From an uncultured Thermoleophilia bacterium (GTDB lineage Bacteria > Actinomycetota > Thermoleophilia > UBA2241), in contig CAVPCT010000005.1 in NCBI GenBank assembly GCA_963702475.1, forward strand, positions 320,001-384,000: DNA of 64,000 nucleotides, in the 5' to 3' direction. The notes beneath the pieces are model-generated. The model had not been told where the DNA came from, did no database searches, and saw only the letters and a program-made list of their open reading frames with translations. Made by a program: the position numbers and the translations under genes. Shown here piece after piece: positions 11,687 through 48,103 of the stretch (positions within the stretch are counted from its first letter, which is position 1; each line of letters begins with the position of its first letter).

Positions 11687-13156
11687 TCAGCCGACGCCGT
11701 GCCGGCGGTCGGCCTCCGCGACGATCGCACGCATCTGCGCGGCGACGTCGGGGTCGACGGGCTCGCACCGGTGTGACTCGAGCAGCTCCAGCGCCCGCTC
11801 GCGGGCGCGCTGCGCCAGGTCGGTCGAGCCCTGCGCCTGCCAGTCGTCGCGCACGCGACGGTCGAGCAGGTCGGAGCGGCTGAGGTCGCGCATGTGGCGC
11901 AGCGTGGAGTCGAGGGAGAGGAAGTCGCCGGACGAGCCGACCGCGGCGATGTCGTCCGCGGCGAGGCTCTCTTCGTCGACGCGGACGCCACCCACGGCCA
12001 TCTTGATCATGTGGGCGATCTCGTCGTCCATGACGAGCTGGCCGAAGTCGAAGGCCACGCCCGACTCGATCATCCCCGCACCGTAGATCTGGTTGGCCCC
12101 TGCCAACGCAGCCAGCAAGCCGGTGAGGGTCTTCTCGTGCCCCGCCTGGGCGTCGCCGAGCTTCGCGTCCGTCTACAACCCCGCCACGAAGCTGGGGAGG
12201 CCGTAGCGCCGCGCCAGCTGCGCGACGGCGGCGCTGATCACGGCGAGCTCGGGCGAGCCGACCGCGGCGGTGGCGAGTCTGAGGTCCATCGCGGTGGTGG
12301 ACGACCCGTAGACCATCGGGCACCCTCGCTCGGTGAGCTGCGCCAGCACGATGCTGCCGAGCACCTCGGCGTTGTGCGTCACCAGCGTGCCCGCCAGCGT
12401 GACCGGCGACGAGCCGCCGGCCATGGCCATGCTGACGACGGTGTTGGACATGCCGGAACGCGCCGCCTCGATGATGACCTCGGTGGCGTCGCGCGGCAGC
12501 TGCAGCGGGCTGACGGGGCACACGCCGAAGCCGACGAGCGGGCGGCGACGCAGCTCGTCCTCGCCGCCCGCGAGCACCCGGGCCATCGCCACGATGGCGC
12601 GCACGTCCTCCGCCGTCGTCGCCTCGCTGCCCACCGGCTTGGTGGTCTCGTGGACGGCCTCCTGCCACTTGTGCAGGCTGGCGGTGGCCGCCGGGACGTC
12701 CTCCGCTCCGACCGCCGACTCGTAGGCGTCCATACTGTCCAGGGCGTCGACCAGACGCGCCACCTCGCGCACGTCCCCGATGCCCGGTTTGCGGTACTCC
12801 CCCGTGCGCGGGTCGACGAGCATGATGCCCTCGTCGAAGTTGGAGAAGTGGACGCTGCCGGCCTCGAGCACCACGTCGTCAGCTGGGTCGCGGCCGCACA
12901 GGTGGACGGCTGGCGGACACGCGGCCACCGCGTCCTCAACGATGTGCGGAGGGATGCGCACCGTGCGCGACCCGCGGTCCACGCGACAGCCTCCGTCGGC
13001 GAAGAGGTCGAGCGGCTCGTCGTCCTCCACGAACAGGCCGGTGCGCTCCAGGACCTCGAGCGTGGCGAGGTGGATGTGGTCGATGTCGGCTTCGCTGAGG
13101 ACGTCGAGCCTCAGACCCGGGCTCCCCGGCCGGCCGGACTGCAGCGGGCGTTTCAC
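11687..13156 (-). CDS. mttB: trimethylamine:corrinoid methyltransferase, pyrrolysine-containing (in-frame TAG 12173-12175)
   Basis: ORF 12173..13324 and ORF 11687..12118 are in frame: SFVAGL-TAG-TDAKLGDAQAGHEKT, matching the MttB Pyl motif; GTG start 13156 after GGGAGG. Confidence 0.9.
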
Positions 13157-13205
13157 GGAGCGCCTCCCTCGTGGTCGGTGGTGGTGAGGTGAGCAGCCGC
13201 GCCGG

Positions 13206-14711
13206 TCACGCGCGCGCCGCCTCGTCGGCGGCGGCCACGAGGCGACGCAGCTCGCGCTGCGCGTCGTCGCCGAGCGGCTCCGGCCGGTAGTGGTCCAAGA
13301 TGTCCCCGGCGCGCTCGCGCGCAACCTCGACGGCGTCGCGGAAGTGGCGCCCGTCGGCGGCGACCTCCTGCGTGATGGCGCGCACCACCGAGGTACGCAT
13401 GTGCCGCCGCGTGTGCACGTGGCCGAGGAAGTTGCCGCCCGGGCCGACCGCGGCGATGGCCTCGAGAGCGAGCGCCTCCTCGTCGGCCGCGACGTCGAGG
13501 AACGCCGCGCGGGCGCGGTGGTAGAGGTCGTCGTCCAGGATCAGGTCCTCGGGCGCGAACACCGTGAAGGTGCCGTGCAGACCGATACCGGTGTAGGTCT
13601 CGCAGCCGTCCAGCGGGAGCTGCAGGAGCTGCGAGGCCTGTTCCACGCCGTGCTGCCAGGTGCCGGGCTCGGTGGCGTCGGTGCCGCCGAAGGCGCCCAG
13701 CGCCGGCAGACCGAAGGCGTGCAGCAGCTCGGTCGCCAGGAAGCGGCAGCGGTCCTCGAGCGGCGCGGACAGCGTGAGCGCGCTCCGCGGGTCGGCGTAG
13801 CTGCTCATGATCGACCCCCACACCGGCGCGCCCGGCGCCGCCAGCTGGTGGAGCACGGCGGCGGCCACGATCTCGGCGGCGCCCACCACCAGGGCGCCGG
13901 CCGGCGTGGCCGGGGCCGTGGTGCCCAGGGTCGGCATGGTCACGTAGCACACGGGGATGCCGGCCTCCGCGAACACCAGTCCGGCGCCGGTGCCGTCGTC
14001 GTCGAGGACGAGCGGCGACACCGTCCCGATGAGGTCGCTGAGCGCTGAGGGAGCGCCGACGCCGCGTGCGTCAGCGACCACAGCGGCCATCTCCACGGCG
14101 CAGCGCGCCAGCGTCTCTCCCTGCACCATGCCCATCAGGTGTTTGGTCGTGTTGTTCCAGCCCGCCTCGAGCTCGTGCACCTGCGCGGCGGGGCCGCAGT
14201 CGCCGGCGCCCACAGTGGGCCACCAGAACGCGATGGACCCGAGGTAGTCCTGCATGCGCGTGACGCCGGCGAGGTCGGCCTTGGTGGACGGGCGCGGCTC
14301 GCCGGTGTGCCGGTCGACGACGTGGGTGCCGCTGCCGTCGGTGGTGCCGTAGGTCTCGCCGGAGGCGAGATCCAGGTCGGTGAGGCCGTCGCGCGAGCCC
14401 AGCACGAAGGTGCGCGGGGCGAGCGCCAGCGACTCCTGGACGAGCCGGCGCGGCAGCCGCACGAGGCCGGAGGCCTCGTCCACGTCCGCGCCGGCCTTCG
14501 CGAACAGCTTGAGGCCCTTGCGCGAGCGGCACTTGACGCCGGTGCCGGCGAGGACGGCGAACGTCGCGTCCAGGTACGGCACCAGCCTCTCCGCGTCGTG
14601 CACCTGCAGGCGGAACTCGGACCGCAGGGGCGCCAGCGGCTGCCTGCGCAGCCGCTGGGCGCCCGGCGCCGTCACGCCCGACGGTCCGGCGTCGGTCGCT
14701 CCGGCGCTCAC
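13206..14711 (-). CDS. MttB-superfamily methyltransferase, non-Pyl
   Basis: MttB-family motifs (P..LV..AL..AP..F.L, G.TAP.T.AG, VGPGGNFL..HT); no amber; start overlaps the upstream mtbB stop (GTGA). Confidence 0.85.
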   Translation of the reverse strand: MSAGATDAGPSGVTAPGAQRLRRQPLAPLRSEFRLQVHDAERLVPYLDATFAVLAGTGVKCRSRKGLKLFAKAGADVDEASGLVRLPRRLVQESLALAPRTFVLGSRDGLTDLDLASGETYGTTDGSGTHVVDRHTGEPRPSTKADLAGVTRMQDYLGSIAFWWPTVGAGDCGPAAQVHELEAGWNNTTKHLMGMVQGETLARCAVEMAAVVADARGVGAPSALSDLIGTVSPLVLDDDGTGAGLVFAEAGIPVCYVTMPTLGTTAPATPAGALVVGAAEIVAAAVLHQLAAPGAPVWGSIMSSYADPRSALTLSAPLEDRCRFLATELLHAFGLPALGAFGGTDATEPGTWQHGVEQASQLLQLPLDGCETYTGIGLHGTFTVFAPEDLILDDDLYHRARAAFLDVAADEEALALEAIAAVGPGGNFLGHVHTRRHMRTSVVRAITQEVAADGRHFRDAVEVARERAGDILDHYRPEPLGDDAQRELRRLVAAADEAARA

Positions 14712-16120
14712 CGCGGCACCGCCCCTCTGCGCGTCCTGACCAGGGAGCTGCGCTCACGGAACCGGTCCACGCAGTTGATGGGCAGGTCGAGAAGGTCGGC
14801 GATGTTCATCTTGGCCTCCATCGCCGTCGCGGCACCCGGGAACGGGGCCTCGGAGTCGATGATCCTGCCGAGGCCCAGCTCGCCGCGGACCTCCTGCATC
14901 GCCACGCAGTCGGAGAGGTCGGCGATGCTCACGCCGAGCCTCTCGGCCACCACACGCTTCGCCTCCGGGAGCCGCAGTCCCCGCGTCATCTGCATGCGCG
15001 CCACCAGGTCTCCGGCGGCGCGTAGCCCGTTCATCCCGCAGGCTGTCGCGTGAGCGCTGGGCATCCCGAAGATGTCGCCTGTACCCACCTACAACCCGTC
15101 CACGCGCAGCAGATCGACGAAGGCGCGCCCCACACGCGACACGGCGTCCACGGGCGGGCAGACGCTCATGGGCACGCCGCCGACCCCCATCCCGGCGTTG
15201 ACGTGCACGGGGATGCTCGCTGCGGCCACGCAGGGCTTGAGGATCGTGGCCGCGCGGGCCACGTTCCAGGCCACGGAGTGCGTGGTGTTGACGTTGACGC
15301 AGGGGCCGAAGATGGTGGCGCCGGCCTGCTCGACCACGCGCAGCTGGTCGTGAGGCCACAGGCCGGCCAGGCGCACGCCGTCGAACTCGAGCCGCCCGTG
15401 CATCCCCAGCACGAACTCGGAGGCCATGCCGACCTCGATGCTCATGGTGGGGAAGTCGCGGCGCAGCGCGCGCACCACCTCGAGCACGGCCAGGAACTCG
15501 GCGTCGCCGGCCGCGCCGCTGGTGTCGAAGTCCAGACCGTCGGCGCCGGCCTCCCAGAGCCTCTCGGCGACGTGGCGCATGTCGGCGGTCGCGTAGGCGA
15601 CCGCCGCCTCCTGCGCCTCACGCGCCTCGTCGGCACGGCCCTGCGGCAACAGCTCGGACCAGTTCGGCACGGGGCCGTCCGGCATCGAGTACCGCCCGAG
15701 GTCGGCCTGCGACCCGTAGTGCAGCGGCATCGTGAGCCGGTGCTGGGCGTCGTGCATGGCCTGGGCCTCGCCGGCGACCACTTTGGCGGCGGCGTTGTAG
15801 CAGTAGTCCTGGTGGAACAGCTCGCCGGAGTCGGCGCCGAGCATCTGCTCGTAGATCACAAGGCCGTCGATGCGCTCGTTCTGCTGCGTGCCGGTGCCGT
15901 CGTAGCTCAGGACGACCTCCTCGCCGATGTCCACGGCCGAGAAGCGCGCGGGAGAGGCGAAGATGTCGAGCAGGTGGTCGAGCTCCGCGGCGTCGAGCGG
16001 CTCGACCTTGGCCCGTTTCGCGCCGAGCGCCGAGCCCTCTTCGAGGTCGGCGCGCAGCTCGGAGCGCGTGAGGTGGACGAGCGCGCCGTCTCCCATCCTC
16101 GTCGGGATCTTCACTTCCAT
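14708..16120 (-). CDS. mtbB: dimethylamine:corrinoid methyltransferase, pyrrolysine-containing (in-frame TAG 15089-15091)
   Basis: TRMGDG N-terminus, GMGVGGVP, RVDGL-TAG-VGTGD, RAAGDLVARMQM, AKMNIA..LD..IN.V; ATG 16120 with RBS. Confidence 0.9.
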
Positions 16121-16206
16121 GAGCGTGCTCTCCCCTCCGGCTGAGCTGCGGGACCGGTCAGCGCACACACAACCCCAGTCCGGCCGCCCGCTCAAGAGCG
16201 GACGCA

Positions 16207-16226
16207 AGGTTTGCCCAAGAATCGGC
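16207..16226 (+). promoter_or_regulatory. conserved 20-bp box AGGTTTGCCCAAGAATCGGC (copy 1), putative regulator site
   Basis: Identical to 18982-19001; both lie 25 nt upstream of a (G/C)ATACT -10 hexamer. Confidence 0.7.
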
Positions 16227-16306
16227 GGTGGCGGCGCGCGATCCAGGCCCGGATACTCCGTCTCAACGACTGTGCCGGCCGCGGCCGGCGGACGAAAGGG
16301 GCGCCC

Positions 16307-17725
16307 GTGGCGCGTGCGCGCATCCAGTACCTGTCGCCTCGGGAGAGCGACTTCATCCACGAGCAGACGCTGGAGCTCCTGGCGCGAGTGGGCGTCGCCT
16401 ACAACTCACCCAGGGCGCTCGACGTGCTGGAGGCAGCCGGCGTGGAGGTCGACCGGGAGAAGCTCACCGCGAAGCTCGGCTGGGAGGTGATCGAAGAGGC
16501 GCTCCGCACCGTGCCCGGACGAGTGCTGCTGGCCGGGCGGCTCCCCGAGCACGACCGCGTGCTCGGCGACGGCCGGCTGGTCACCACGAGTGACGGCATG
16601 ACCACGTACGTGCTGGACGAGCCCGGCGGCGCCCGCCGCGAGGGCACCGCCGCCGACCTGGCCACCGTCACCCGGCTCTGCGACGCGCTCGACGAGATCG
16701 ACGTGGTGTGGCCCTCGCCGCAGGCCGGCGACGTGGACGCCTGGATGATGCCGCTGGTGATGCAGGCGACGGTGGTGCGCAACACCGGCAAGCACGTGCA
16801 GGACGAGGTACGCACCCCGGAGATGGTCGAGCCGATCCTGGCGGTGTACGAGGCGGCCGCGGGCGCGACGCTGCGCGAGCGCCCGGTGTTCTCGGTGACG
16901 AACTGCACGATCGCGCCGCTGCAACACGACCGCGAGATGACGGAGGCCGGCCTGGAGCTTGCGGCACGCGGCGTGCCCATCTTCGTGCTGCCCATGCCCC
17001 AGGCCGGTACGACAGGGCCCATGACCCTGCTCGGCACCTGCATCGTGCACATGGCCGAGCTGCTCTCGGCGGTCGTGCTCTACCAGCTGGCCGTGCCCGG
17101 CTGCCCGCTCATCGCCGGGGTCGGGGCCGCCGTGGCCGACATGCGCAGCGGCGGCTACATCTCGGCGGCGCCCGAGATCGGCCTCATCAACCTGATCTGC
17201 CTCACGATGAGCAAGCGCTACGGGCTGCTCACGCAAGCCACGGGGATCTCGCCCGACGCCAAGGTGAGCGACTTCCAGGCGGGCTCGGAGGGCGGCATGA
17301 CGGGGCTCGTGGCCGCCCTCGCCGGCGCCGACTCGCTCATCGCCGCCGGCAGTCTGGACGGCGTACAGTGCTCGAGCCTCGCCAAGCTGGTGCTGGACGA
17401 CGACCAGCTCGGCGCCATCCGCCGCTACCTGCGCGAGGACCCCATCGACAAGACGGCGGCGCTCATGGACGACATCCTCGAGGTCGGCATCGGCGGCCAC
17501 TTCCTCGCGCGCCGCAGCACCCGCCACGCCGCGCGCACGGAGGTCTGGCGGCCGCGCGTGTTCCAGCGCGGGAGCTACGCCGAGCTGGCCGGTCGGTCGG
17601 TGGTGCAGGCGGCCGCCGAGCGCGCCGAGGAGCTGCTGGCGACGCACGACGCGCCGCCGCTCGCGCCCGCGGCCGAGGCGGCGATCGCCGAGGTACTGGC
17701 GGCCTGGGAGGCGCGCCGGCCCTGA
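16307..17725 (+). CDS. MttB-superfamily methyltransferase, non-Pyl
   Basis: IHEQTLELLARVGV, AGTTGPMTLLG, TGISPDAKVSDFQAGSE (Ser at Pyl position), VGIGGHFL; GTG start after GAAAGGGG. Confidence 0.88.
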   Translation: MARARIQYLSPRESDFIHEQTLELLARVGVAYNSPRALDVLEAAGVEVDREKLTAKLGWEVIEEALRTVPGRVLLAGRLPEHDRVLGDGRLVTTSDGMTTYVLDEPGGARREGTAADLATVTRLCDALDEIDVVWPSPQAGDVDAWMMPLVMQATVVRNTGKHVQDEVRTPEMVEPILAVYEAAAGATLRERPVFSVTNCTIAPLQHDREMTEAGLELAARGVPIFVLPMPQAGTTGPMTLLGTCIVHMAELLSAVVLYQLAVPGCPLIAGVGAAVADMRSGGYISAAPEIGLINLICLTMSKRYGLLTQATGISPDAKVSDFQAGSEGGMTGLVAALAGADSLIAAGSLDGVQCSSLAKLVLDDDQLGAIRRYLREDPIDKTAALMDDILEVGIGGHFLARRSTRHAARTEVWRPRVFQRGSYAELAGRSVVQAAAERAEELLATHDAPPLAPAAEAAIAEVLAAWEARRP

Positions 17726-19001: not shown

Positions 19002-19072
19002 TCTTACACGCCCCGTGCCCCGTGCGCATACTGCGGCGACGCAGCCGGGGATCACACTGAGGGAGGGTGCAC

Positions 19073-20587
19073 GTGGAACTGACGACCGCGAGCCAGACCG
19101 CCGCCCGGAGCCAGGGCCTCAAGCGCACCAGCGTCCGCCTTCTCACGGTGTTCTTCATGATCTACATCCTCGTCTCGGGCGGGTCGTTCGGCATAGAGGA
19201 CATGGTGTCATGGTCCGGCCCGGGCCTCACGATCCTGCTGCTCATGGTGCTGCCGATCGTCTGGAGCTTGCCCATGGCGCTGGTCGCGAGCGAGTTGGGG
19301 TCGGCGCTGCCCGGCGAGGGCGGCTTCTACATCTGGGCGCGGCGCGGGCTCGGCGACTTCTGGGGATTCCAGACCGCCTGGTGGTGGACCCTCTCCATCT
19401 TCGTGGACTCGTCGGTCTACGTCGTCCTGGCCGTCGGCTACCTGCAGAACTGGCTGGGCTTCGGACAGCTCTGGTTCTACGTCACCTGCTGGGCGATCAT
19501 CGCCGTGTTCACACTCGTCAACGTCTTCGGGGTCAAGCTGGTGGCACTCAGTTCGACCGTCTTCTCGGTGCTGATCATCGCGCCGTTCCTCGTGCTGATC
19601 GTGGTCGGCCTGGCGAAGTGGCAGTTCAACCCCCTGACGCCGGTGACGCCGCCGGGCGTACCGTTCTTCGGCACCAACGGCGCCCTCGGCCTCGGGCTGG
19701 CCATCGGCGTGTGGATGTACTCCGGCTACGAGTCCATGTCCACGCTTTCGGGAGAGATCCGCGATCCCCAGCGCGTGATCCCGCGCGCGCTCCTGCTCGC
19801 GGTGCCGTTCATCATCGCCATGTACGTGCTGCCCACGGTGGCCGCCCTGGCCGGCTACGGCCAGTGGGACATGTGGGCGACAGACGCCGGCGACGGCTAC
19901 GTCTCGTTCGTGGAGATCGGCAGGGCCCTCGGCGGCTCCGCGCTCGGCGTCGCGCTGCTGGCGTCGGCCCTGCTCGGCAACCTGGCGCTGTACCTGGACT
20001 ACCTGGCCTCGGGCGCGCGCCCACTCTTCGCACTCTCTACCGATCGCCTCTTCCCCGCCGCGGCGTCTCGCGTCAGCAGGCGGTTCGGTACGCCGGTCGT
20101 GGCCATCCTGCTGATGGCCGGGCTGAACGCCGTTCTCATCGTCGGACCGTTCCGGAACCTGGTGGTGATCGACGTGATCCTGTTCACGGCGTCGTACGTG
20201 CTGATCTTCATCGCCGCGGTCGCTCTGCGCGTGAAGGAGCCCGGGCTAAGAAGGCCGTTCCGCGTGCCGCTGGGGACAAAGGGCATGGCGCTCATGGTGG
20301 CACCGCCCATCGCCATCGTGCTCTTCACGATCTACGTGAACGCCATCGACCGCAGCACGGAGATCCTCGGCGTCACCGGCTTCCGGGTGCTGGGCATCGA
20401 CGTGGGCTGGTACGGCATCGGCGGCTTCCTCGCGCTGGCCTCCGGACCGGTGTGCTACCTGGCCTTCCGCCGCGCGTTCGGCGGACCGGCCACGCCGGCG
20501 GCGCAAGCCGGCGACGACGAGCTGGCGGCGCTCGCGGCGGCCGCCGAAGACGGGGACGACGAGGCCGGCCCAGGAGCGCTCGCATGA
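19073..20587 (+). CDS. APC-family amino acid/polyamine/methylamine permease
   Basis: About 12 TM segments; SGGSFGIED, ELGSALPGEGG.Y.W, YSGYES, RRPFRVP motifs. Confidence 0.9.
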   Translation: MELTTASQTAARSQGLKRTSVRLLTVFFMIYILVSGGSFGIEDMVSWSGPGLTILLLMVLPIVWSLPMALVASELGSALPGEGGFYIWARRGLGDFWGFQTAWWWTLSIFVDSSVYVVLAVGYLQNWLGFGQLWFYVTCWAIIAVFTLVNVFGVKLVALSSTVFSVLIIAPFLVLIVVGLAKWQFNPLTPVTPPGVPFFGTNGALGLGLAIGVWMYSGYESMSTLSGEIRDPQRVIPRALLLAVPFIIAMYVLPTVAALAGYGQWDMWATDAGDGYVSFVEIGRALGGSALGVALLASALLGNLALYLDYLASGARPLFALSTDRLFPAAASRVSRRFGTPVVAILLMAGLNAVLIVGPFRNLVVIDVILFTASYVLIFIAAVALRVKEPGLRRPFRVPLGTKGMALMVAPPIAIVLFTIYVNAIDRSTEILGVTGFRVLGIDVGWYGIGGFLALASGPVCYLAFRRAFGGPATPAAQAGDDELAALAAAAEDGDDEAGPGALA

Positions 20588-22023
20588 GGGCGCGGCTCGA
20601 GATCCTGACCGCCGGGGAGCGCGCCCAGGTCCACGAGCGCACCCTGGGGGTGCTCGAGCGGACGGGGATGCGCTGCGACTCGATCGAGGGTCGCCGGATC
20701 CTCGCCGACGCCGGCGCCCGGGTGGACGAACACACCGGCGTCGTGCGCTTTCCGGCGGTGCTCGTCGAGCAGGCGCTGGCGCAGGCGCCGAAGGCGTTCA
20801 CGCTCGGAGGCCGCCGTCCCGGCTGGAGGTTCGCCCTCTGTGAGGGCGAACAGACCCTGCTCGCCGACGGCGGCGCCACCGCCGTGTTCGACAGCGCGAC
20901 CGGCGAGCGACGGCCACCGACCCGCGGCGACTGGCTGGCGGCCACGCGCATCCTCGACGCGCTCGACGAGGTCGGCCTCTACTGGTGCCCGACGGACTAC
21001 CCGGCGGACTACGAGCGCGCCGGCGGCTTCGTGCGCTACTACGCGGACGCGTTCGCCACCTTCGGCAAGCACGTACAGGACTCGTTCGGCACGCCCGAGC
21101 TGGCGCCGTGGCTCGGCGAGGTCCTCGAGGCGGTGTTCGGCGGCCGCGCGCGCGTGCGCGACCTGCGGCCGCTCTCGTTCCTCATCACGCCGGCCTCTCC
21201 GCTCACCATCGAGCGCAACTACACGGACTCGTGGCTCGCGCTGCGGGACTACCGGTTGCCGGTCGCCATCATGCCGATGCCGCTGCAGGGGGCGACGGCG
21301 CCGGGCAGCCGGCTGGGCACCCTGCTGGCCGCCAACTGCGAGACCCTGGGCACGCTCTGTCTGGTGCAGGCCGCGGCGCCGGGCACGCCCGTCATCTACG
21401 CGCCGGTCGTGGCCACGATGGACCCGCGCACCGGGCTGTACGCCGCCGGCGCCGTGGAGCACGCCGTGCTCTGCGCCGCCGGCACGGAGATGGCCCGGTT
21501 CTACGGCCTGCCGGCCGAATCCTCGGGCTTCTGCACGCAGACCCACGAGCCTGACCTGCAGACCGCCTGGGAGAAGGCCAACGGCGCCCTGCTCGTCACG
21601 CTCTCCGACCCCGACATCCTGGTCGGGCCGGGGCTGCTGGCGGGCGCGACGGTGCTGTGCCTCGAGCAGCTCGTGCTCGACGTGGCGGAGTGGCGCCTGG
21701 CACGCCAGGCGCAGACGGGCATCCCGGTGCGCGACGACCTCTGGCTCGACGACGTGCTCGACCGCGTCGGGGCCGGCGGCTCGTTCCTCTCCGCGCGCTC
21801 CACGCGTGCCAACGCGCGCGGGGGCGAGGAGTGGCGCCTCGGCGACCTCGGCTTCCACGGCAGCCACGACGCGTGGCGCGCGGCCGGCGCGCCGACGACG
21901 CTGCAGTACGCGCGAGAACGTGTCACGGAGATCCTCGCCGCGCACCAGCCGGTGCCCTTCGACGACGACGTCACCGCTGCGCTCGCGGAGCTCCAACGGC
22001 GGGCCGACGCAGCCGACGCGTGA
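20584..22023 (+). CDS. MttB-superfamily methyltransferase, non-Pyl
   Basis: ATG at 20584 overlaps the permease stop; GATAPGS, MDPRTG, SGFCTQTHEPDLQTAWEK (Cys at Pyl position). Confidence 0.88.
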   Translation: MRARLEILTAGERAQVHERTLGVLERTGMRCDSIEGRRILADAGARVDEHTGVVRFPAVLVEQALAQAPKAFTLGGRRPGWRFALCEGEQTLLADGGATAVFDSATGERRPPTRGDWLAATRILDALDEVGLYWCPTDYPADYERAGGFVRYYADAFATFGKHVQDSFGTPELAPWLGEVLEAVFGGRARVRDLRPLSFLITPASPLTIERNYTDSWLALRDYRLPVAIMPMPLQGATAPGSRLGTLLAANCETLGTLCLVQAAAPGTPVIYAPVVATMDPRTGLYAAGAVEHAVLCAAGTEMARFYGLPAESSGFCTQTHEPDLQTAWEKANGALLVTLSDPDILVGPGLLAGATVLCLEQLVLDVAEWRLARQAQTGIPVRDDLWLDDVLDRVGAGGSFLSARSTRANARGGEEWRLGDLGFHGSHDAWRAAGAPTTLQYARERVTEILAAHQPVPFDDDVTAALAELQRRADAADA

Positions 22024-24079: not shown

Positions 24080-24083
24080 CGGA

Positions 24084-38291: not shown

Positions 38292-38323
38292 CGCACCGCT
38301 CGGGGCGGTGACTGGAGGTGCCA

Positions 38324-39712
38324 ATGGCTCGTCGCATCCCCACAAGACTCGGGGACGGCTCGCTCGTCGCGCTCACCGCCGCCGAGATCGAGGCGGACCT
38401 TGTCTCCGGCTGTGAGGCGGCGGTGAAGCGCGCCAAGGTGGAGCCGCTCACCGACGACGACCTCGCCCACCTGCTCGACATCTTCACGTCACCCGCCAAG
38501 TTCAGCGCCGTGGACTACGGCGACGAGGTCGTCCTGAGCTTCGACGGGTCGGGCAACTCTGACCTCAACGCGCCGATCCTCGAGCAACTCGTCTACCAGA
38601 ACCACCACGGCGCCGACATGATCGAGCTTTGGCATCAGGACTACTCGTACAAAGCCGTGCGCACCGTGCTCTCCTTCCAGACGCAGACGGTCAAGGAGGC
38701 ACAGCTCCAGACGGTGATCCCGCTGAACTACGGGGCCATGCCGGACCTGGGCCGCTACTCGATGCCCGACGGCCCGGCCCCCAACTGGTCGGAGCTGCTG
38801 CCGCTCGGCAGGTACGAGGAGGCCCGCGAGGCCCAACTCGAGGCCGTGAAACACCTCGAGAAGGACATGTGGTACGTGATCGAGGCCATGGTGGCCGCGG
38901 GCGTGGACGGCATCGATTTCGACACGGCGGGAGCGGCCGGGGACGCCGACCTGCTGGCCACGCTGCGCACCGCGCGCAAGGTGCGCGACACGTGGCCGCA
39001 CATCGGCGTGGAGATCGGCCAGGCCTCCGAGCTGGTGCTCGGCATGCACGGGCAGCTCGAGTACGAGGGCACCAGGCTGGCCGGCCAGTGGCCCCTCGGC
39101 CAGCTGCGCGCGTGCACCGCAGCCGGCGCCACCATCTTCGGGCCGGCCGTGAACGTGAACACCACCAGGTCGTTGCCGTGGAACACGGCCCGCGCCTGCG
39201 CGCTCATCAAGCCCGTCACCGCCGAGGCCACCATCCCCGTGCACGCCAACGCGGGGATGGGCGTCGGCGGCGTCCCCATGACGCCGTACCCGCCGGTCGA
39301 CGCCACGTCCCGGGCGTCCCGCGCCCTCGTCGACATCTGCAAGGTCGACGGGTTGTAGGTCGGGATCGGGGACCCCGTGGGGATGGCCTCGACACACGCG
39401 CTCGCCTCGGGCATGGGCGGCATGCGGACCGCCGGAGATCTGGTGGCCCGCATGCAGATGACCCGGGGCATGCGTCTCCCGCAGGCCAAGCAGTACGTGG
39501 CGGAGAAGCTCGGCTGCTCCGTGGACGACCTCAACGACACCGTGGTCATGCACGACATCCGCCGCGACCTCGGCCTCGGCCGTATCCAGGTGCAGGACCT
39601 CACCTACGCCGACCACCCGGGAGCGATGGAGGCGAAGTTCCGTATCGCCGAGGTGCTGGACATCCCCATCAACTCGGTCCAGCGCTTCAAGGCGCACGCC
39701 GGGCTGGCGTGA
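38324..39712 (+). CDS. mtbB: dimethylamine:corrinoid methyltransferase, pyrrolysine-containing (in-frame TAG 39356-39358)
   Basis: [42 protein letters not shown]; GGAGG RBS. Confidence 0.92.
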
Positions 39713-39782
39713 CGGCGGCGGCGACGCAATGACGGCTGCGGCGAGGTCACCTCGCGACGGTGAGCCGGGACGGAGGACACGC

Positions 39783-41251
39783 ATGACTTCACAGCTGGAC
39801 CTGACGCAGCGCCAGCCGCTGCTGCCGCTGGGCTCCGACTTCCGCGTGCAGTTCTACGGTGCGGCGAAGCTGGACCGTTACAAGGAGGCCGTCCTGACGG
39901 TGCTGGAGCGGACCGGCGTCAGGTTCGGGTCGGCCAAGGCCCTCGCCGTCCTGGATGCGCACGGCGCCCGCGTCGACCGCGCGTCCGGCGTCGTCCGTCT
40001 CCAGCCCGACCTCGTCGAGCGAGCCCTCGGCACCGCCCCGCGCTCGCTCTGGCTGGGGTCGCGGGACGGCACGCTCGACCTCGATCTGGCGTCAGGCGAC
40101 ACCTACAACACCACCAACGGGTGCGGTACTGAGGTCGTCGACTGGCGCACCGCCGAGCGGCGGCCGCCGACCAAGGACGACCTCTGCGCCATCACGCGCA
40201 TGATCGACTACCTGGGCTCGGTCCAGTTCTGGTGGCCCAACGTGGCCGCCGCGGACAAGGGCGACACCCACACCCTGCACGAGCTGGACGCCGCCTGGAA
40301 CAACACGGCCAAGCACCTGCAGGGCATGGTGCAGGGCGAGCGCGAGGCGCGGTACGCCGTGGAGATGGCGACCGTCGTCGCCGGAGGGGCGGAGCAGCTG
40401 CGCCGCCGCCCCCCGATGAGCAACCTCATCGGCACCGTCCAGCCACTCATCAACGACAAGGACGGCATCGAGGCGGCCCTGGTGTTCGCCGAGGCCGGTG
40501 TGCCCGTGTGCTTCGTCACGATGCCGACCTACGGGACGACGGCGCCGGCCACCAAGGCAGGCGCCTACGTCATGGGGTTCGCGGAGCTCATCAGCGCCGC
40601 GGTCTGCGTGCAGCTGGCGCACCCGGGGGCGCCGGTCATCCTCTTCCCCCTCCCCGTGCACGCCGACCCGCGCACGGCCGCGCTGACCACCGCCCCGCTC
40701 AACCACCGCGGCCTCTTCTTGCCCGGCGAGCTCGTGCACCACTTCGGGCTGCCGGCCATGACCGGGTACGCAGGCACCGACGACGACCTGCCGGGCAGCT
40801 GGCTGGCGGCGGCCGAGACGGCGCACACCGTGATGCTGGCCGGCATCGTCGGCTCCGAGCTCATGACCACCATCGGCCTCACCAACCGCTACCAGCTGTT
40901 CACGCCCGAGCACATGATGCTCGACGACGACCTCTACCGGCGGGCGGCCAGCGCCTTCCGCGACCTCGAGCTCGACGACGAGACGCTGGCGCTGGACGTG
41001 ATCGACGCCGTGGGCCCCGGCGGGCACTTCCTGGGCCAGGCGCACACCCGCCGGCACATGAAGGAGACCGTCGAGCGCTCGATCGGCCAGGAGATCGGCC
41101 CCGACGGCACGCACCTGCGCGACGCCGTCGAGGTCGCGCGCGAGCGCGGCCTCGATATCCTCGAGCACTACGTACCGGAGCCGCTCGACGAAGCGAAAGC
41201 GGTGGAACTGGGCGCATCGTGGCGGCGGCCGACGCCGAGCTGCTCAGCTGA
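39783..41251 (+). CDS. MttB-superfamily methyltransferase, non-Pyl (frameshift near 41211)
   Basis: Close paralog of 13206..14711; C-terminus RIVAAADAELLS lies in another frame. Confidence 0.85.
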
Positions 41252-41925
41252 GCATGGCCGGCCGCGGCCGGCGCCCCGTCCCAGGCGCCCGTGTCCTCGG
41301 CGCCGGCGTCCTGCACGCTGCTCTTCACACAGTCGAGCACGAGGGCGCGCCACAGCTCGAATGCCGGGGTCAGGTCGAGGTCGGGGTCGGCGATGGCCTG
41401 TAGCGCGAGTCCGTCGGTCATGGCGACCGTCAGCACGGCCAGCGGTTCGCTCCTGGCCTGACGCGGACGCCCGTCGCTCCCCTCGTCCAGGGCCCACGTG
41501 TCCAGGCGCCTGTACCACTCGAAGAGCTGGCGCAGGTGCGGCTGGAGCTGCTCGTCGCGCAGGACATGGGGGATCAGCTCGTAGAACATCTGGTACGAGT
41601 CGCGGTCGGACGACATGCTTTCGTGGATGCTCAGGAGCGTCTGGCGACGCTCCTCCCCCGCCGGTACGGCGGTGAGCTTCTCGATGAGCTCCACGGCCTC
41701 CTGGTACAGCACGGAGTCCACAAGCGCGGTGAGCAACCCGGCCTTGCTGCCGAAGTGGTAGCGGATGAGCGCAGGGTTCTCGCCGGCCTCTCTCGCGATC
41801 GTCTCGAACGTGAGAGCACGGAAACCGTCCCGATACAGCACGCGCTTCGCCGCGTCGAGAATGCGCAGGGCGGTCGGCGACAGGTCCGGCGTCGGGTCGT
41901 CGATGGGCAGCTCGTATCTCGCCAT
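41168..41925 (-). CDS. TetR/AcrR family regulator (3' end uncertain)
   Basis: RILDAAKRVLYRDGFRALTFETIAREAGENPALIRYHFGSKAGLL HTH; restoring the 41211 indel gives a stop at 41168. Confidence 0.85.
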
Positions 41926-42079: not shown

Positions 42080-42137
42080 TTGACAGCCTCACGTCCTCTG
42101 CTAGTGTATCGCACATCTTAGTTATGTAACTAACTAA
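42080..42137 (+). promoter_or_regulatory. promoter TTGACA-16-(TG)TAGTGT with palindromic operator TTAGTTA-N6-TAACTAA (42118-42137)
   Basis: Second copy of the operator, divergent from the TetR gene. Confidence 0.8.
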
Positions 42138-42167: not shown

Positions 42168-43573
42168 TTGAGCAGCAAGGTACGCACCCGTCTCGGCGAC
42201 GGGTCGCTCGTCGAGATGACGCCCGGGGAGATCCGCGCCGACCTCGAGGCCGGCACCGAGCTCGGGGCCAGGCGGTCCAAGGCGCCGCAACTCACCTCCG
42301 CCGAGCTCGACCAGCTGCAGGACATCTTCACCACCGAGGCCAAGTTCAGCGCCGTCGACATGGGCGACGAGGTCGTCCTCAGCTTCGACGGCTCAGGCAA
42401 TCTGGACTCGGGCACACGTGTCGACGAGCTCTACAGCTACCAGTGCCACCGCGGCGCCGACATGCTGGAGCTCTTCGGCATCGACTACTCGTACAAGGCC
42501 GTGAAGACCATCCTGAGCTACGAAGCGCAGGCGATGAAGACGGCCCAGCTCAACCTCATCGCGCCGCTGCAGTACGGCGCGATGCCGGACCTCGGCCGGT
42601 ACTCGATGCCGGACGGCCCGATCCCCAACTGGTCCGAGCTCATGCCCAGGGCCGCATCCCGGAGGCGCGCGACGCGCAGGTGGCGGCCATCGAGCTGGCC
42701 GTCGCCGACATGATCTTCTGCGCCGAGGGCATGTGGGAGGCCGGCGCGGACGGCCTGGACTTCGACACGGCCGGGGCCGCCGGCGACGGGGACTTCCTGG
42801 CGGCCCTCACCGCCATCGAGGCCATCAAGGGCCGCTACCCGGACTGCGGCATCGAGCTCGGCATGGCCAGTGAGTACGTGCTGGGCATGCACGGCGAGCT
42901 CGAGTACAAGGGCCGGCGTCTGGCCGGCATGTGGCCGGTCGAGCAGGTCAAGGTCGCACAGGAGGCCGGCGCCACCATGTTCGGGCCGGCTGTCAACGTG
43001 AACACCACGAGGAGCGTGGCCTGGAACGTGGCCCGCGCCTGCACGATCATCAAGCCCTGCATGGAGGTCGCCGAGATCCCCGTGCACCCCAACGTGGGCA
43101 TGGGCGTCGGCGGCGTACCCATGAGCCCCTACCCCCCGGCCGACGCCGTCTCGCGCGTCTCGCGCGCCCTCGTCGACATCCTGCAGCTGCGACGGGTTGT
43201 AGGTCGGCGTGGGTGACCCTCTGGGCATGGCGTGCACGCACGCGCTGGCCTCGGGCATGGGAGGGATGCGGGCCGCCGGAGACCTGGTGGGCCGCATGCA
43301 GATGACCCGGGGCATGCGTCTCGAGGACGCCAAGACCTACGTGGCCGGCAAGCTCGGCTGTGCCGTCGCGGACCTGGCCGACCCCATCGCCATGCACGAC
43401 GTGCGCCGCGACCTCGGCCTGGGCCGCATCACGGTGCAGGAGCTCACCTACCCACGCACGCCGGCGCGATGGAAGCCAAGTTCCGCATCGCCGACGTGCT
43501 GGACGTGCCCATCAACAGCGTGACGCGCTTCGCCGAGAACGCGAAGCTGACGACGACAGGAGGACGGGTGTGA
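42168..43573 (+). CDS. mtbB: dimethylamine:corrinoid methyltransferase, pyrrolysine-containing (TAG 43200-43202; frameshifts near 42650, 43189, 43455)
   Basis: Four ORF pieces assemble into a full MtbB with DGL-TAG-VGVGDPLGM. Confidence 0.82.
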
Positions 43574-45051
43574 AACGGAACCTGCAGGTCGGAGGCGGCC
43601 GCAGCCGGGGGCTCAGCTTCTCCGTGTTCACCGAGACGGAGCTCGACCAGATCCACTACGCGACGCTCGAGGTCCTGGAGCGCACCGGCATCTTCGTCGA
43701 GGACGACGAGGCGCTGGACATCTTCAAGGACGGCGGCTGCCGGGTCGACCGCGAGCACCGGGTGGTGCGCATCCCGCCGCACGTGGTGGAGGACGCGATC
43801 CGCAGCGCCCCGAGCAAGTACGTGCTCTGCGGGCGCGACCCGAAGAACGACTTCCTCATGGAGCCGGGGCGCGTGGCGTTCACCAACTTCAGCGAGGGCA
43901 TCGCCGTGATCGACCTCGAGAGCGGCGAGCACCGCAACTGCACCCTGGAGGACGTAGCGACGATCGCGCGCCTCAACGACTACCTCCCGAGTTCGACACG
44001 CACGAGATCGCCGTGGGCGCCCGCGACGTGCCGCCGCAGACGGCGGCGGTGCACAACACCGAGGCCCAGCTGCACAACACCACCAAGCCGATCGGCATCG
44101 GCCCGCTCTCCGGCCTGGAGTGCCGCGCGATCCTGCAGATGTGCGCCGCGGTCGTGGGTGGCGAGGACGAACTGCGCGAGCGCCCGATCGTGTACGGCGG
44201 CGTGTGCCCGGTGAGCCCGCTCAAGCTGCCGCGCGACGCCACCGAGGTCATCATCGAGTGCTCGCGCTGGTGGATCCCCGACAACGTGCTAGAGCATGGC
44301 CATGTCGGGCGGGTCCAGCCCGGTCACCCTTTCCGGCACGCTCGTGGTGCACAACGCCGAGGTGCTCAGCGGCATCGTGCTGGCGCAGCTCACCGAGCGC
44401 GGCTGCCCGGTGATGTACGGCTCGTCCACCACGGCCATGGACCTCAAGCTCGCGGCGGCCTCCGTCGGCTCGCCCGAGATCTGCCTGATCAGCGCCGCGG
44501 TGGCGGAGCTGGCGCGGCGCTACCAGATCCCGAGCTTCGTGGCCGGGTTGTAGGCGGACGGCAAGGTCGGTGACGAGCAGGTCGGTCACGAGAAGACCCT
44601 CACCGGACTCACGGCAGCGTTGGCAGGGGCCAACCTGATCTACGGTGCGGGGATGATCGAGTCGGGCGTCACCTTCGATTGCGCGCAGTTCGTCATCGAC
44701 AACGAGATCGCGCGCATGATCCGGCGGGTCGCCGAAGGCATCCGCGTGGACGACGAGAGCCTCGCCGTGGACGACATCCACAGCGTGGGGCCGTTCGGCG
44801 ACTTCCTCTCGCTGGACTCCACCTACCGCCACATGCGCGACCTGACCCAGCCGGAGATCCTGGACCGGCGCACCCGCGAGGAGTGGCAGGCGAGCGGGTC
44901 CCGCGACCTGTATTCCGAGGCGGTCATCAAGGCCCGCGGCATCGTCGAGGAGCACCGGCCGGAGCCGCTGCCCGACGACGTGGCCGCGCGGATCCGCGCC
45001 ATCGTCGAAGAGACTGACCGCGTCGCCGGCGCCACCGCCGGCGTCGCCTGA
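43570..45051 (+). CDS. mttB: trimethylamine:corrinoid methyltransferase, pyrrolysine-containing (TAG 44551-44553; frameshifts near 43985, 44290)
   Basis: [24 protein letters not shown]; close paralog of 11687..13156; GTGA coupling to mtbB. Confidence 0.85.
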
Positions 45052-45062: not shown

Positions 45063-46663
45063 ATGGCCGCTGAACCGCAGCTGCTCGCCGGAGGGGGCGC
45101 GCTCGGCGAGGAGCGCAAGAAGCTCAAGAAGGTGCTGCACCGCTTCGACCTCGTGTTCTTCACGATCGCGGCGTTCATCAGCCTCGACACCATCGCGCGT
45201 GACGGCAGCCTACGGCGGCGGCGAGACGTTCTGTCTGGCTCGCCTTCCTCATCATCGTGTACCTGATCCCCTACGGGATGATCATCGCCGAGATGGGATC
45301 CGCCTTCCCCGTGGAGGGCGGACCGTACGCGTGGGTGCGTATGGCGTTCGGCCGCCTGGCCGCCTCGTACACCGCGGTCATCTATTGGGGCTCGAACCCC
45401 GTGTGGATCGGCGGCACGCTCGCGGCGACCTCCGTGGCCGCCATCAACAGCCTGATCCTCGAGGAGCCGATGAGTACCGGCTGGTCGATCGTCGTCGGCC
45501 TGGTCGTCGTCTGGGTCACCGTGATGCTGTCGATGATCGAGATGAAGTACGGCAAGTGGACCGGCATCATCGGCACCATCGTGCGTCTGCTGACGCTCTT
45601 CATCTTCCTCGCGCTCGTCATCGTCTTCCTCGTGCAGAACGGCAAGCCCGAGGGGACGGTCACGGTCGCGGACATGAAGCCGACGCTCCTGGGATTCCTC
45701 GGCGGTCATCGGCCTGCTGCAGTTCATGTTCGTCGGCTTCGAGCTCTCCAGCGGCGCAGCAGAGGAGATGACGGACCCGCAGAAGGACGTCCCCAAGATG
45801 ATCATCCGCTCGGGCCTGATCGCGGCGGCCATCACCGGCTCGATGATCCTGGGCGTGCTGCTCGTCATGAACGGCGACGCGCTCACGAGCGTGGCCGGCT
45901 TCACCGACGCCTACAACGCGGTGGCCAGCGTGCTGGGTGGCGCCCAGACGGCGTTCAACTGGTTCATCTGCGCGCTCATCATCATCACCATCATCAGCGC
46001 CGGCGGCGTATGGCAGCAGGGTGGCGTGCGCATCCAGGCCATGGCCGGCCTGGACGGTGCGGCTCCACTCTGGTTCGGCAAGTTCAGCAAGGCGGGCACG
46101 CCGCTCACCATGAACATCCTCTCGGCGATCATCGGCTCCATCTTCGTGGTGCTCGTGTTCCTCATCGCCGAGGGCAGCCTCGCGACCTTCTTCGGCATCA
46201 TGGTCTCGGTGATCATCTCGCTCACGGCGATGATGTACGTGTTCCAGTTCCCGGCCGTGATCATGCTGCGCAAGAAGTACCCGGACCATCCCCGGCCGTT
46301 CCGCATTCCCGGCGGCCGGTTCTCATGTGGCTGTGCGTCATCGGCGCCGAGACGATCGTGATCATCACGATCATCACGCTGCTGTGGCCGGGCTTGCTCG
46401 ACAACGCTTTGGGTCAGCCCTACGACATCAACTACTGGTGGGGCGTCTCCCGCGCCTACTTCGAGACCGTGACGCTCGGCATCGTCGGGCTCTTCCTGGT
46501 GATGGCGGTCGCGTTCTGGGCCATCGGCAGGCGCAACATCAGGAAGGGGCTCGTGGGTGAGAACGACCTGCTCGCCATCGACCCTGAAGCTGTGGCCGAG
46601 GAGCTCGAAGTACGGAGGCCGCAGCACCCGCATCACCAGAGCTGCGCCGCGAGGAGCGTGTGA
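45063..46663 (+). CDS. APC-family amino acid/amine permease (frameshifts near 45200-45240, 45705, 46318)
   Basis: EMGSAFPVEGGPYAW, FVGFELSS.AAEEM.DP and RPFRIPGG motifs across frames. Confidence 0.8.
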
Positions 46664-48103
46664 GCGTGATCGAGCGGTCGACGACAGCCGATCGCGCCGA
46701 TCCGCTCGGACTTCGCCGTCCGCTTCCACGACGACGCGGCCATCGCGCCGCTGCACGATGCCACCCTGCGGCTGCTCGAAACGACCGGCATGCGCTTCGA
46801 GTCGCCCAGAGGCCGCTCGCGATCCTGAAGAAGGCCGGCGCCCACGCGGACGAGGGCTCTTCCCTCGTCCGCCTGCCCGCCGGCTGGTCGAAGAAGCGCT
46901 CGCGCAGGCGCCGCGGCAGTTCACGCTCGGCGCCCGCGACCCTTCCTGCGACCTGCAGGCCGGCTCCGGCTGGACCTACGGCACCACCGACGGCTGCGGC
47001 GTGGAGGTCGTCGACTGGCACACCGGCGAGCGGCGGGCGTCGACCAAGGCCGACCTCGAGGCCGTCACGCGCATGCAGGACTGCCTCGGCTCCATCAGCT
47101 ACTGGTGGCCCACCGTGAGTGCCGGCGACTGCGGCGAGACGGCCCAGATCCACGAGATCGAGGCCGGCTGGAACAACACGAGCAAGCACCTCATGGGCAT
47201 GGTGCAGGGCGAGCGGCTCGCCCGGGCGGCCGTGGAGATGGCGGCCGCGGTGGCCGGCGGGCTAGAAGGACTCCGCCGCCGGCCCGTCATGAGCAACCTC
47301 ATCGGCACAGTCTCGCCCCTCATCCACGACAAAGACGGGCTGGAGGCCGGCCTGGTCTTCGCCGAGGCCGGCGTGCCGGTCTGCTACGTGACCATGCCCA
47401 ACCTGGGCACGACGGCCCCGGCCACCAAGGCCGGCGCTTTCGTGCTCGGCGCGGCCGAGATCGTCGGCGCGGCGGTGCTCCACGAGCTCGCCGCGCCCGG
47501 CAGCCCTGTGCTCGGCTCGATCATGCAGATCTACGCCGATCCGCGCACTGCGCTGACGATGACGACGCCGCTCGACGACCGCTGCCGCTTCCTGGCCACG
47601 CGCTGCTGCACAGCTTCGGCCTGCCTGCGCTCGGCCCGTTCGGAGGCACCGACGCGGAGCTTCCCGGCACCTGGCTCGCGGGAGTCGAGACCATGCTGCA
47701 ACTGGCTCAGCTGCCCCTGGACGGGTGCGAGCTGTACACCGGCATCGGCCTCACCAACACCTATCAGCTCTTCAAGATGGACATCTACCACCGCGCACGG
47801 CACGCCTTCCTCGACATCCCTGTGAACGACGAAGAGCTGGCCCTCGACGTGATCGACACGGTCGGTCCCGGTGGGCACTTTCTCGCGCAGCCGCACACGC
47901 GCAGGCACATGCGCGACGCGGTCCTGCGCGCCGTCAGCCAGGAGATCGCGGCCGACGGCCAGCACTACCGCGACCCAGTGGAGGTGGCCCGCGAGCGCGC
48001 CCTCGACATCCTGGAGGACTACCAGCCGGAACCGCTCGCGGAGGAGGTTCGCGCCGAGCTGCGCCGGATAGTCGACGAGGTGGACGCGGCCGTGAAGGCC
48101 TGA
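46660..48103 (+). CDS. MttB-superfamily methyltransferase, non-Pyl (several frameshifts; possible pseudogene)
   Basis: Paralog of 13206 and 39783 genes: GTTDGCG..VVDW, WWPTV, WNNTSKHLMGMVQGE, VGPGGHFL. Confidence 0.78.

Follow-up and report, generated by a model that had tools for sequence, protein, structure and literature searches.

The window studied here is a stretch of 64,000 nucleotides (nt) from the metagenome-assembled genome (MAG) of an uncultured Thermoleophilia bacterium (genome G000, contig C5, positions 320001-384000), in which genes for methylamine methyltransferases of the MttB and MtbB types lie close together. With TAG read as a residue and intact copies mapped back by tblastn, seven MttB-family genes and four mtbB genes were counted in it. 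Several of them contain an in-frame TAG corresponding to pyrrolysine (Pyl) and others do not; the subject of this study is a group of three MttB homologs of the latter kind (non-Pyl MttB A, B and C), each of which is found in a cassette with a Pyl-type mtbB (Table 1). The MAG comprises 4.3 Mb in 9 contigs (those named below are C3, C4, C5 and C9) with 70% G+C, a completeness of 93.8% and a contamination of 6.5%. It can decode UAG as pyrrolysine, with tRNA-Pyl, PylS and PylD all being encoded.

A first-pass annotation of the window, made by a model without database searches, had described three operons repeating the pairing of mtbB with a non-Pyl mttB. Cassette A indeed has the arrangement given there: on the minus strand, mtbB is followed by the non-Pyl mttB and then by a Pyl-type mttB. 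The single in-frame TAG of mtbB_A is located at positions 15089-15091, and its TGA stop codon overlaps the GTG start codon of non-Pyl MttB_A (GTGA), which is the sole member of the group in the window that is fully intact as assembled. The TAG of the Pyl mttB_A gene (12173-12175) aligns with the Pyl residue of the Methanosarcina barkeri MttB structure (PDB 7xcl), and the gene likely starts with the GTG at 13156, which is preceded by the putative ribosome-binding site GAGGGAGG.

In cassette B the predicted pair is present, but the non-Pyl gene, for which an end at 41251 was proposed, reads through this position to 41675, one base being missing near 41210, 13 codons ahead of the ancestral stop codon. 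As its start, the ATG at 39783 behind GGAGGA is likelier, in agreement with orthologs of 489-490 amino acids (aa). Cassette C had been presented as mtbB-mttB(Pyl)-APC permease-mttB(nonPyl) between 42168 and 48103; homology to all four genes was confirmed, but all four are frameshifted as assembled, and the pieces of non-Pyl MttB_C match PF06253 with 94 and 42 bits. In addition, we found a fourth Pyl-type mtbB, mtbB_D, which was not listed before. It has no MttB partner and is followed by genes of an ABC transporter, and its product groups with those of the related loci L002 and L041 in an MtbB clade of its own.

Table 1. Features of the methylamine methyltransferase region in the window and pyrrolysine genes of the same genome. 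Positions without a contig label are those of the window.
Feature	Position	Strand	Evidence and remarks
Pyl mttB_A, trimethylamine methyltransferase	11687-13156	-	TIGR02369 658 bits (cut-off 525)
Non-Pyl MttB_A, 501 aa	13206-14711	-	PF06253 E 2.3e-50, 171.5 bits (cut-off 25); C/A-type subclade
mtbB_A, Pyl-type dimethylamine methyltransferase	14708-16120	-	PF09505 E 2e-160; TIGR02368 433 bits (cut-off 369)
Non-Pyl MttB no. 3, different clade	16211-17725	+	PF06253 E 5.5e-75; divergent from mtbB_A
APC permease upstream of non-Pyl MttB no. 4	19067-20587		PF13520
Non-Pyl MttB no. 4, different clade	20560-22023	+	PF06253 E 4.6e-61
Putative TetR operator 1, 20-bp AT-rich palindrome	38272-38291	+	behind TTGACA/TATGGT promoter-like site; 27 nt before mtbB_B
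mtbB_B, Pyl-type	38318-39712	+	PF09505 E 6e-158; TIGR02368 399 bits (cut-off 369); TAG 39356-39358
Non-Pyl MttB_B	39729 or 39783 to 41251	+	PF06253 E 6e-52, 176.8 bits (cut-off 25)
TetR-family regulator between the two operons	40900-41925	-	PF00440, PF17940, PF13977 (BetI-type C-terminal domain, 28 bits)
Putative TetR operator 2	42118-42137	+	behind TTGACA/TAGTGT promoter-like site; 30 nt before mtbB_C
mtbB_C, broken into 4 pieces	42168-43558	+	frame changes near 42640, 43187, 43455
Pyl mttB_C, broken into 3 pieces	43561-45051	+	frame changes near 43990, 44300; TAG 44551-44553
APC-family permease, at least 2 pieces	45257-46663	+	PF13520 positions 43-183 and 193-392 in different frames
Non-Pyl MttB_C, 3-4 pieces	46679-48103	+	frames 2, 1, 3, 2; changes near 46800, 46878, 47600
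ABC transporter (ATPase, BPD_transp_2 permease, PF04392 binding protein)	48120-50979	-	downstream of mtbB_D; same place in L001 and L041
mtbB_D, Pyl-type	51146-52573	-	PF09505 E 4e-164; TIGR02368 428 bits; TAG 51515-51517
PylD	C3:640193-640975
tRNA-Pyl(CUA)	C3:641046
PylS	C3:657647-658372

At the protein level, non-Pyl A and B are full-length members of the MttB superfamily (PF06253), with scores above the gathering cut-off, while against the equivalog model of the Pyl-containing MttB (TIGR02369) they reach 253-267 bits and thus stay far below its cut-off of 525. This sub-threshold match was the sole one in NCBIfam, where no model naming the clade was found. By contrast, the MtbB proteins A, B and D score above the cut-off of the dimethylamine methyltransferase model TIGR02368 (399-433 bits versus 369), and the TAG-derived residue occupies one invariant column in all 24 aligned MtbBs. 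The best solved relatives of the non-Pyl proteins are the M. barkeri MttB (7xcl) and MtgB of Desulfitobacterium hafniense (9yce, 2qne), with 115-152 bits. Non-Pyl A, B and C have the motifs LGSxxxWWP, WNNTxKHLxGMVQGE and GTDxxxPGxW in common. As the first-pass annotation had noticed, these motifs are restricted to the three copies in the window: the other two non-Pyl MttBs do not contain them, nor does the Pyl copy. In a tree of the 61 MttB-family rows of the genome, 38 of which are devoid of Pyl, the three proteins form an exclusive clade with a support of 100 in the Shimodaira-Hasegawa-like approximate likelihood ratio test (SH-aLRT).

When species-representative genomes were scanned with an alignment of non-Pyl A and B, 78 loci were obtained, mostly from MAGs of Thermoleophilia or unclassified Actinomycetota, about ten from Anaerolineae or other Chloroflexota and one from a MAG labelled Deltaproteobacteria. 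Six-frame open reading frames (ORFs) of all 78 loci were scanned with profiles made from the MttB and MtbB copies of the window, and distances between mtbB and non-Pyl genes in the relatives were derived from the hidden Markov model (HMM) coordinates. In a FastTree phylogeny with 188 rows, an 81-row clade (support 100) divides into a subclade of 41 rows, which is embedded in Pyl methylamine gene clusters, and a sister subclade of 40 rows. The two differ in their linkage: mtbB is present in the locus for 34 of the 38 rows of the linked subclade that do not stem from our genome, versus none of the 40 sister rows.

Within the linked subclade two types can be distinguished. The B-type (24 rows) has an mtbB on the same strand at most 200 bp upstream in 21 of its 23 non-own rows; of the other two, one lies at the edge of its contig, and in the second the distance to the upstream mtbB is 1.3 kb. 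The C/A-type (14 rows) occupies the end of a gene series consisting of mtbB, mttB(Pyl), a corrinoid protein gene and a permease gene, with mtbB within 4 kb in 10 of 12 non-own rows; in its tree, our copy A branches earliest and our copy C is located deep inside. The synteny extends over about 22 species, with gaps of at most 50 bp, some stop/start overlaps and protein identities of 55-90%. Further, all 18 MtbBs encoded directly before a non-Pyl gene, MtbB_B among them, fall into one clade, the sister of which is a 13-row clade of MtbBs preceding Pyl mttB. MtbB_A and MtbB_D belong to other MtbB groups, and canonical-looking MtbBs, including the copy at C9:308734 with a corrinoid gene next to it, branch outside. 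Since the MtbB tree mirrors the tree of the non-Pyl MttBs, the phylogenies indicate that mtbB and the non-Pyl gene have been passed on together in about 22 species-level genomes. The linkage to mtbB, which the first-pass annotation had named as decisive for its proposal, is thus conserved in other genomes.

Such a close association raises the question whether the non-Pyl protein might bind to MtbB instead of acting as a free-standing enzyme, either in a scaffolding role or by providing a second active site that works on a corrinoid protein common to both. The stop/start overlap in cassette A, the close spacing in most orthologous pairs and the divergence of the two families in step would fit such a heteromer. 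We nevertheless regard it as very unlikely, because the C-type copies are two or three genes away from mtbB, because the pocket positions described below are strictly conserved within each type, as is typical for an enzyme, and because MttB is described as a homo-hexamer (PMC9842639) and MtgB as a homodimer (PMC13080624), each assembled via its own C-terminal loops.

A few further loci deserve mention. In the MAG labelled Deltaproteobacteria/Myxococcota (L021), the B-type pair and the mtbB genes are nearly identical to those of Thermoleophilia MAGs in arrangement and sequence; mis-binning is more likely here than transfer. In the Anaerolineae/Chloroflexota loci L068, L070-L073, L076 and L077, which contain no mtbB, three to six non-Pyl MttB genes are arrayed in tandem beside peptide-type ABC permease genes; L068, L070 and L072 additionally have a corrinoid gene. 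One array member per Chloroflexota locus represents the nearest outgroup of the Thermoleophilia clade. The sister subclade, of which no member was found in our genome, has a different neighbourhood: in the Pfam-annotated loci L007, L029 and L055, a gene of the DNA_alkylation family (PF08713) comes next, together with one for a GAF/SpoIIE phosphatase.

Comparison at the DNA level revealed that the window between 38.3 and 52.6 kb is collinear with L001, L010, L011, L038, L040, L046 and other related loci at 80-85% identity. The common plan of this island starts with mtbB_B and non-Pyl_B, followed by tetR on the opposite strand, an optional mtbB_C, mttB(Pyl) and a corrinoid gene; then come an optional permease gene and an optional non-Pyl_C and, again on the opposite strand, the ABC transporter genes and mtbB_D. 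Its content is variable, since mtbB_C, the corrinoid gene and the permease gene are each missing from some genomes. A gene for a B12-binding (corrinoid) protein follows Pyl mttB in 14 related loci, and the TetR gene is found in the same position in L001, L012, L016, L034 and L041.

The domains of this TetR are located within the first ~200 codons from 41925, while its ORF has 341 codons, in comparison to about 220-235 in the relatives. Its distal part overlaps in antisense orientation, over about 350-780 bp, with the ORF 39729-41675, which includes the read-through tail of non-Pyl B. Antisense frames that stay free of stops over long distances are expected in DNA with 70% G+C, and thus the tails of both ORFs are probably not translated as drawn.

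Upstream of both operons of the island we detected the same palindrome, TTAGTTATGTAA[G/C]TAACTAA, located behind a promoter-like site of the sigma-70 type. At up to four mismatches it has just two copies in the 4.3-Mb genome, its own reverse reading aside, and the chance expectation for the window is 0. It is present at matching places in 22 of the 78 related loci. Because the same putative operator precedes both operons and tetR lies between them, operons B and C, including their non-Pyl genes, are most probably controlled by the TetR that is encoded there. Operon 1 consists of mtbB(Pyl) and the B-type non-Pyl MttB, while operon 2 consists of mtbB(Pyl), mttB(Pyl), the corrinoid protein gene (in relatives only), the APC permease gene and the C-type non-Pyl MttB. 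Therefore, the statement that three operons repeat the pairing has to be modified: the pair is real in A and B and recognizable by homology in C, but B and C are two adjacent operons of one conserved methylamine island typical for this Thermoleophilia lineage, not independent recurrences, C is broken, and A is a lineage-specific paralogous copy.

The conserved island and its regulation bear on the possibility that the non-Pyl genes are merely co-located paralogs, which act on an unrelated methylated substrate without any coupling of pathways and which owe their presence in the island to an inherited old duplication. The family is greatly expanded in this genome (63 MttB-family loci, of which 10 are split into at least two pieces), a 40-row sister subclade exists without mtbB, the island differs between genomes in mtbB_C, the corrinoid gene and the permease gene, and long-read MAGs often contain the C-type copy in fragments. 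All this is compatible with uncoupled paralogs. On the other hand, the tight synteny over about 22 species with matching MtbB and MttB clades and the single operator and repressor acting over both operons speak against it, and we consider this explanation unlikely.

We then looked at the substrate pocket. Its positions were mapped via a HMMER alignment to the MtgB structure 9yce (numbering offset 2), and the columns were counted in the 188-row alignment. In MtgB, glycine betaine is bound by Y97 and F356 (cation-pi interactions) and by R312 and H348, which contact the carboxylate (PMC13080624). The column of R312 contains Met in all 24 B-type rows, Leu in all 14 C/A-type rows and Glu in all 40 rows of the sister subclade. 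At H348, the B-type has Thr (24/24), the C/A-type Thr (13) or Ser (1) and the sister subclade Pro (40/40). The Y97 column is Cys in the B-type (24/24), mostly Cys in the C/A-type (12, with one Ser and one gap) and Cys (37) or Ser (3) in the sister rows. Among the MtgB residues, only the F356 position keeps an aromatic side chain, with Tyr in the B-type (24/24) and the sister subclade (40/40) and Tyr (13) or Phe (1) in the C/A-type. The Pyl column itself is Gly throughout (38/38 B- and C/A-type rows, 24 and 14, respectively, and 40/40 sister rows), and no in-frame TAG was found in the non-Pyl clade. The four Trp residues of the motifs are invariant or nearly so in both types. At the R312 position of the sister subclade, the acidic Glu suggests a substrate with a second positive charge.

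Five non-Pyl MttBs have a demonstrated function, and acidic quaternary amines are the substrates of all of them. According to the text of PMC13080624, R312 is conserved in these five enzymes, MtgB, MtpB, MtcB, MtyB and MthB. This arginine, for the conservation of which we rely on that text, is absent from our clade. Further, Tyr364 of the Pyl-containing MttB, which corresponds to H348, was described to hydrogen-bond a water on the pyrroline ring and to be 100% conserved and catalytically important (PMC9842639); in the clade it is replaced by Thr in 37 of the 38 linked rows and by Ser in one. Since the pocket residues and Pyl are substituted and the shared arginine is absent, the clade belongs, judged by its residues, neither to the Pyl-type MttBs nor to the betaine enzymes of the MtgB kind. 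The first-pass annotation had named a position within a characterised family as speaking against its proposal; the clade lacks the MtgB residues and the arginine that the five enzymes share in the text of PMC13080624.

The hydrophobic and aromatic pocket without a basic residue invites the idea of a Pyl-independent isozyme, in which an aromatic cage would replace Pyl for the demethylation of trimethylamine (TMA) or another simple methylamine, so that no UAG read-through would be needed. It would suit this idea that the non-Pyl gene is found behind mtbB, where the neighbouring operon has a Pyl mttB, and that the NTxKH motif is common with M. barkeri MttB in the HMMER alignment. But the clade is not nested among the Pyl MttBs, its TIGR02369 scores are less than the required 525 bits by a wide margin, and no precedent is known in the MttB family for the activation of a neutral tertiary amine without Pyl. 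When the exchange of the catalytically important Tyr364 for Thr (PMC9842639) is also taken into account, such an isozyme appears very improbable.

Based on these observations, we favour the following interpretation, to which we assign a probability of roughly 0.55: the clade would comprise corrinoid-dependent methyltransferases for a non-acidic methylated amine, which are co-regulated with the enzymes for TMA and dimethylamine (DMA) and share their corrinoid protein. According to this model, the non-Pyl proteins are predicted to be substrate:corrinoid methyltransferases (MT1) of the MttB TIM-barrel superfamily. Their methyl donor would be a methylated amine lacking an acidic group, held in an aromatic, hydrophobic pocket rich in Trp and Tyr, in which Met or Leu stands in place of the salt-bridging Arg. 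The methyl group would be passed on to the corrinoid protein that MttB and MtbB use as well, which in the relatives would be the single one of the island. In our genome, A and B would depend on one of the ~27 corrinoid proteins whose genes are located elsewhere, because the corrinoid gene is missing from the island and C is frameshifted. There is a parallel for such an arrangement, since MtqC of Eubacterium limosum is described as encoded apart from its MT1 genes and as common to three of them (PMC8604678). Because one repressor switches all genes, the substrate is probably linked metabolically to TMA and DMA: it may be related to them or degraded to them, and several N-methyl groups might be stripped successively or in parallel. 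The stepwise scheme from quaternary via tertiary to secondary amines, which the first-pass annotation had proposed, for example from a quaternary amine via TMA and DMA to monomethylamine (MMA), would be compatible with the co-regulation and with the three-enzyme content of cassettes A and C.

A more specific version can be put forward only tentatively, and we consider it doubtful. The clade might be a Pyl-independent methyltransferase with a tryptophan cage for a simple non-acidic methylammonium compound, such as tetramethylammonium, choline or a similar quaternary amine that yields TMA or a TMA-like tertiary amine, or for TMA itself. If this is true, the TetR island would represent a complete bacterial N-demethylation chain from quaternary via tertiary and secondary to primary amines, and two related substrates would be divided between the B-type (Met) and the C-type (Leu) enzymes.

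Several observations weigh against our favoured interpretation of a co-regulated methyltransferase for a non-acidic amine. Co-regulation is no proof of a shared pathway, and as the 20-bp operator was not found at cassette A in the motif scan of the genome, co-regulation is shown for B and C only. No corrinoid protein is encoded within 110 kb of the window, the nearest matches on the same contig being at C5:208430 and C5:570415; of the 28 matches to the corrinoid cap domain in the genome, none is inside the window. Two of the three clade members in the window are not intact as assembled. Finally, in a MAFFT alignment with the 42 other non-Pyl paralogs of the genome, which are distant ones, Arg is present at the R312 column in just 3, and therefore its absence from the clade is not special in this genome.

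The state of cassette C was analyzed in more depth. While one frameshift was found in the about 58 kb outside of it, the 5.9 kb of cassette C contain at least 9, and the inspected sites of frame change show no homopolymer runs. Short contigs from four public runs, which are 90-99% alike and stem from relatives, have 1-nt indels at or beside 43187, 46809, 46813, 46875 and 47598. Thus, versions of cassette C that are in frame occur in other samples; whether the present assembly errs is a separate question. In addition, a corrinoid gene of ~675 bp, which is located between Pyl mttB and the permease gene in L069, L013, L008 and L034, is missing in the window; as this is a structural difference, it is not explicable by base-level errors.

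In the relatives (the loci concerned are L008, L011, L013, L024, L034, L038, L040 and L046), broken genes are confined to long-read 'MFD' assemblies and, within these, to the segment that begins with Pyl mttB and ends with non-Pyl C. In the 'MFD' assemblies, fragmentation affects Pyl mttB in 3 of 15 and non-Pyl C in 3 of 10 cases, compared to 0 of 20 for mtbB and 0 of 14 for non-Pyl B; five split corrinoid genes were found in the same segment. In assemblies of other origin, fragmented genes amount to 0 of 29. This restriction to 'MFD' assemblies counts against real decay of cassette C. We therefore describe it as broken as assembled, which reflects either repeated decay or an assembly problem specific for this segment. 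In any case, the island in our genome is partly decayed or mis-assembled, and its corrinoid gene is missing.

A comparison with known systems helps to see in which respects the island is unusual. It resembles the methylamine operons of M. barkeri (MtbB/MtbC, MttB/MttC, MttP) in that its Pyl-containing MtbB and MttB score above the equivalog cut-offs of NCBIfam and in that, in the relatives of the window, a corrinoid protein gene and an APC-type permease gene follow mttB. It differs from them by its high-GC bacterial host, by the single corrinoid gene, by the TetR repressor with a palindromic operator, and by the presence within the operons of one or two non-Pyl MttB paralogs, of which one takes the position expected for mtbC. 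With MtgB of D. hafniense (PDB 2QNE, 9YCE) the clade shares the PF06253 TIM-barrel, the lack of Pyl, a HMMER alignment over ~440 residues at 115-140 bits and the aromatic residue at F356; unlike MtgB, it has Met or Leu at R312, Thr at H348 and Cys or Ser at Y97, and its genes are located among Pyl genes. No betaine transporter gene was found near the clade genes.

The system of E. limosum, in which MtpB, MtcB, MtyB and MthB work with MtqC, is similar in the large number of MT1 paralogs per genome and in a corrinoid protein that is probably shared and, in our case, encoded elsewhere (PMC8604678). These enzymes act on acidic quaternary amines and keep R312, and it is by the text of PMC13080624 that the clade is set apart from them. 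MtqB of Methanococcoides methylutens Q3c, which uses tetramethylammonium and choline, is described as a homolog of MtmB (PMC13044021). Its role without Pyl on non-acidic quaternary amines, with TMA formed from tetramethylammonium feeding the Pyl enzymes, is the kind of role that we propose here. Since MtqB is an MtmB homolog and not an MttB, a function common to MtqB and our clade would be convergent; the clade matches PF06253 (MttB) only and is not of the MtqB type, which belongs to the MtmB family. For this reason tetramethylammonium was rejected as a known function of the clade, a convergent role being conceivable.

Expression of Pyl-type mttB and mtbB by some Actinobacteriota MAGs was reported for a mire (PMC10805028). 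Our literature searches on pyrrolysine, MttB and MtbB in Thermoleophilia or Actinobacteria returned no description of the clade or of the pairing between mtbB and a non-Pyl MttB. New here are a distinct non-Pyl clade that, judging from the trees, diverged in step with its mtbB partner, sub-types with Met, Leu or Glu fixed at the aligned position of the acid-binding Arg, and, in this genome, an island that lost its corrinoid gene and has one operon broken as assembled. The clade is conserved, embedded in operons and devoid of the acid-binding arginine, and it appears to be controlled by the repressor that also acts on the genes of the TMA and DMA enzymes. Thus, it represents a well-defined and clonable candidate for a new substrate class of the MttB superfamily, although not for a novel type of system, and the genes around it give a pointer to the substrate. 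This is of interest also from the environmental point of view. Thermoleophilia MAGs of this kind come from soils, wetlands, lakes and sediments, and the use of methylamines and quaternary amines by Thermoleophilia competes with methylotrophic methanogens for methane precursors.

The closest paralogs of Pyl mttB_A and of non-Pyl MttB no. 3 are encoded at C4:176.5-181.1 kb, beside an mtbB remnant. Because of these paralogs and of the lacking operator, cassette A looks like an older duplicate that underwent rearrangement. The regions C4:176594-181120 and 11687-17725 of the window are segmental paralogs: the Pyl mttB C4_179475 is sister to Pyl mttB_A, the non-Pyl C4_178018 shares a 5-row clade with non-Pyl MttB no. 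3, and the mtbB remnant is located at C4:180884-181120. The broken gene C4_176594 is the closest outgroup of the studied non-Pyl clade within the genome.

The same contig stands out in the number of paralogs. About 35 of the 63 MttB-family loci of the genome are concentrated on C4, between about 2 and 235 kb, many of them in tandem and several in pieces. Of the 14 MtbB matches in the whole genome, 7 are full-length in one piece. For E. limosum, 42 MttB copies have reportedly been found, and the expansion dominated by C4 is comparable in size. Besides tRNA-Pyl, a tRNA-Sec(UCA) gene for selenocysteine (Sec) was detected at C3:167171-167268, and the organism may use both expanded-code amino acids. 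Last, at a distance of 6.5 kb from cassette A, the minus strand of the window (1007-5164) harbours genes for a 2Fe-2S/FAD (flavin adenine dinucleotide) oxidoreductase, a DAO-family FAD oxidoreductase and a saccharopine dehydrogenase-like protein, which resemble parts of sarcosine or opine oxidases and could oxidise the secondary amines that remain after demethylation.

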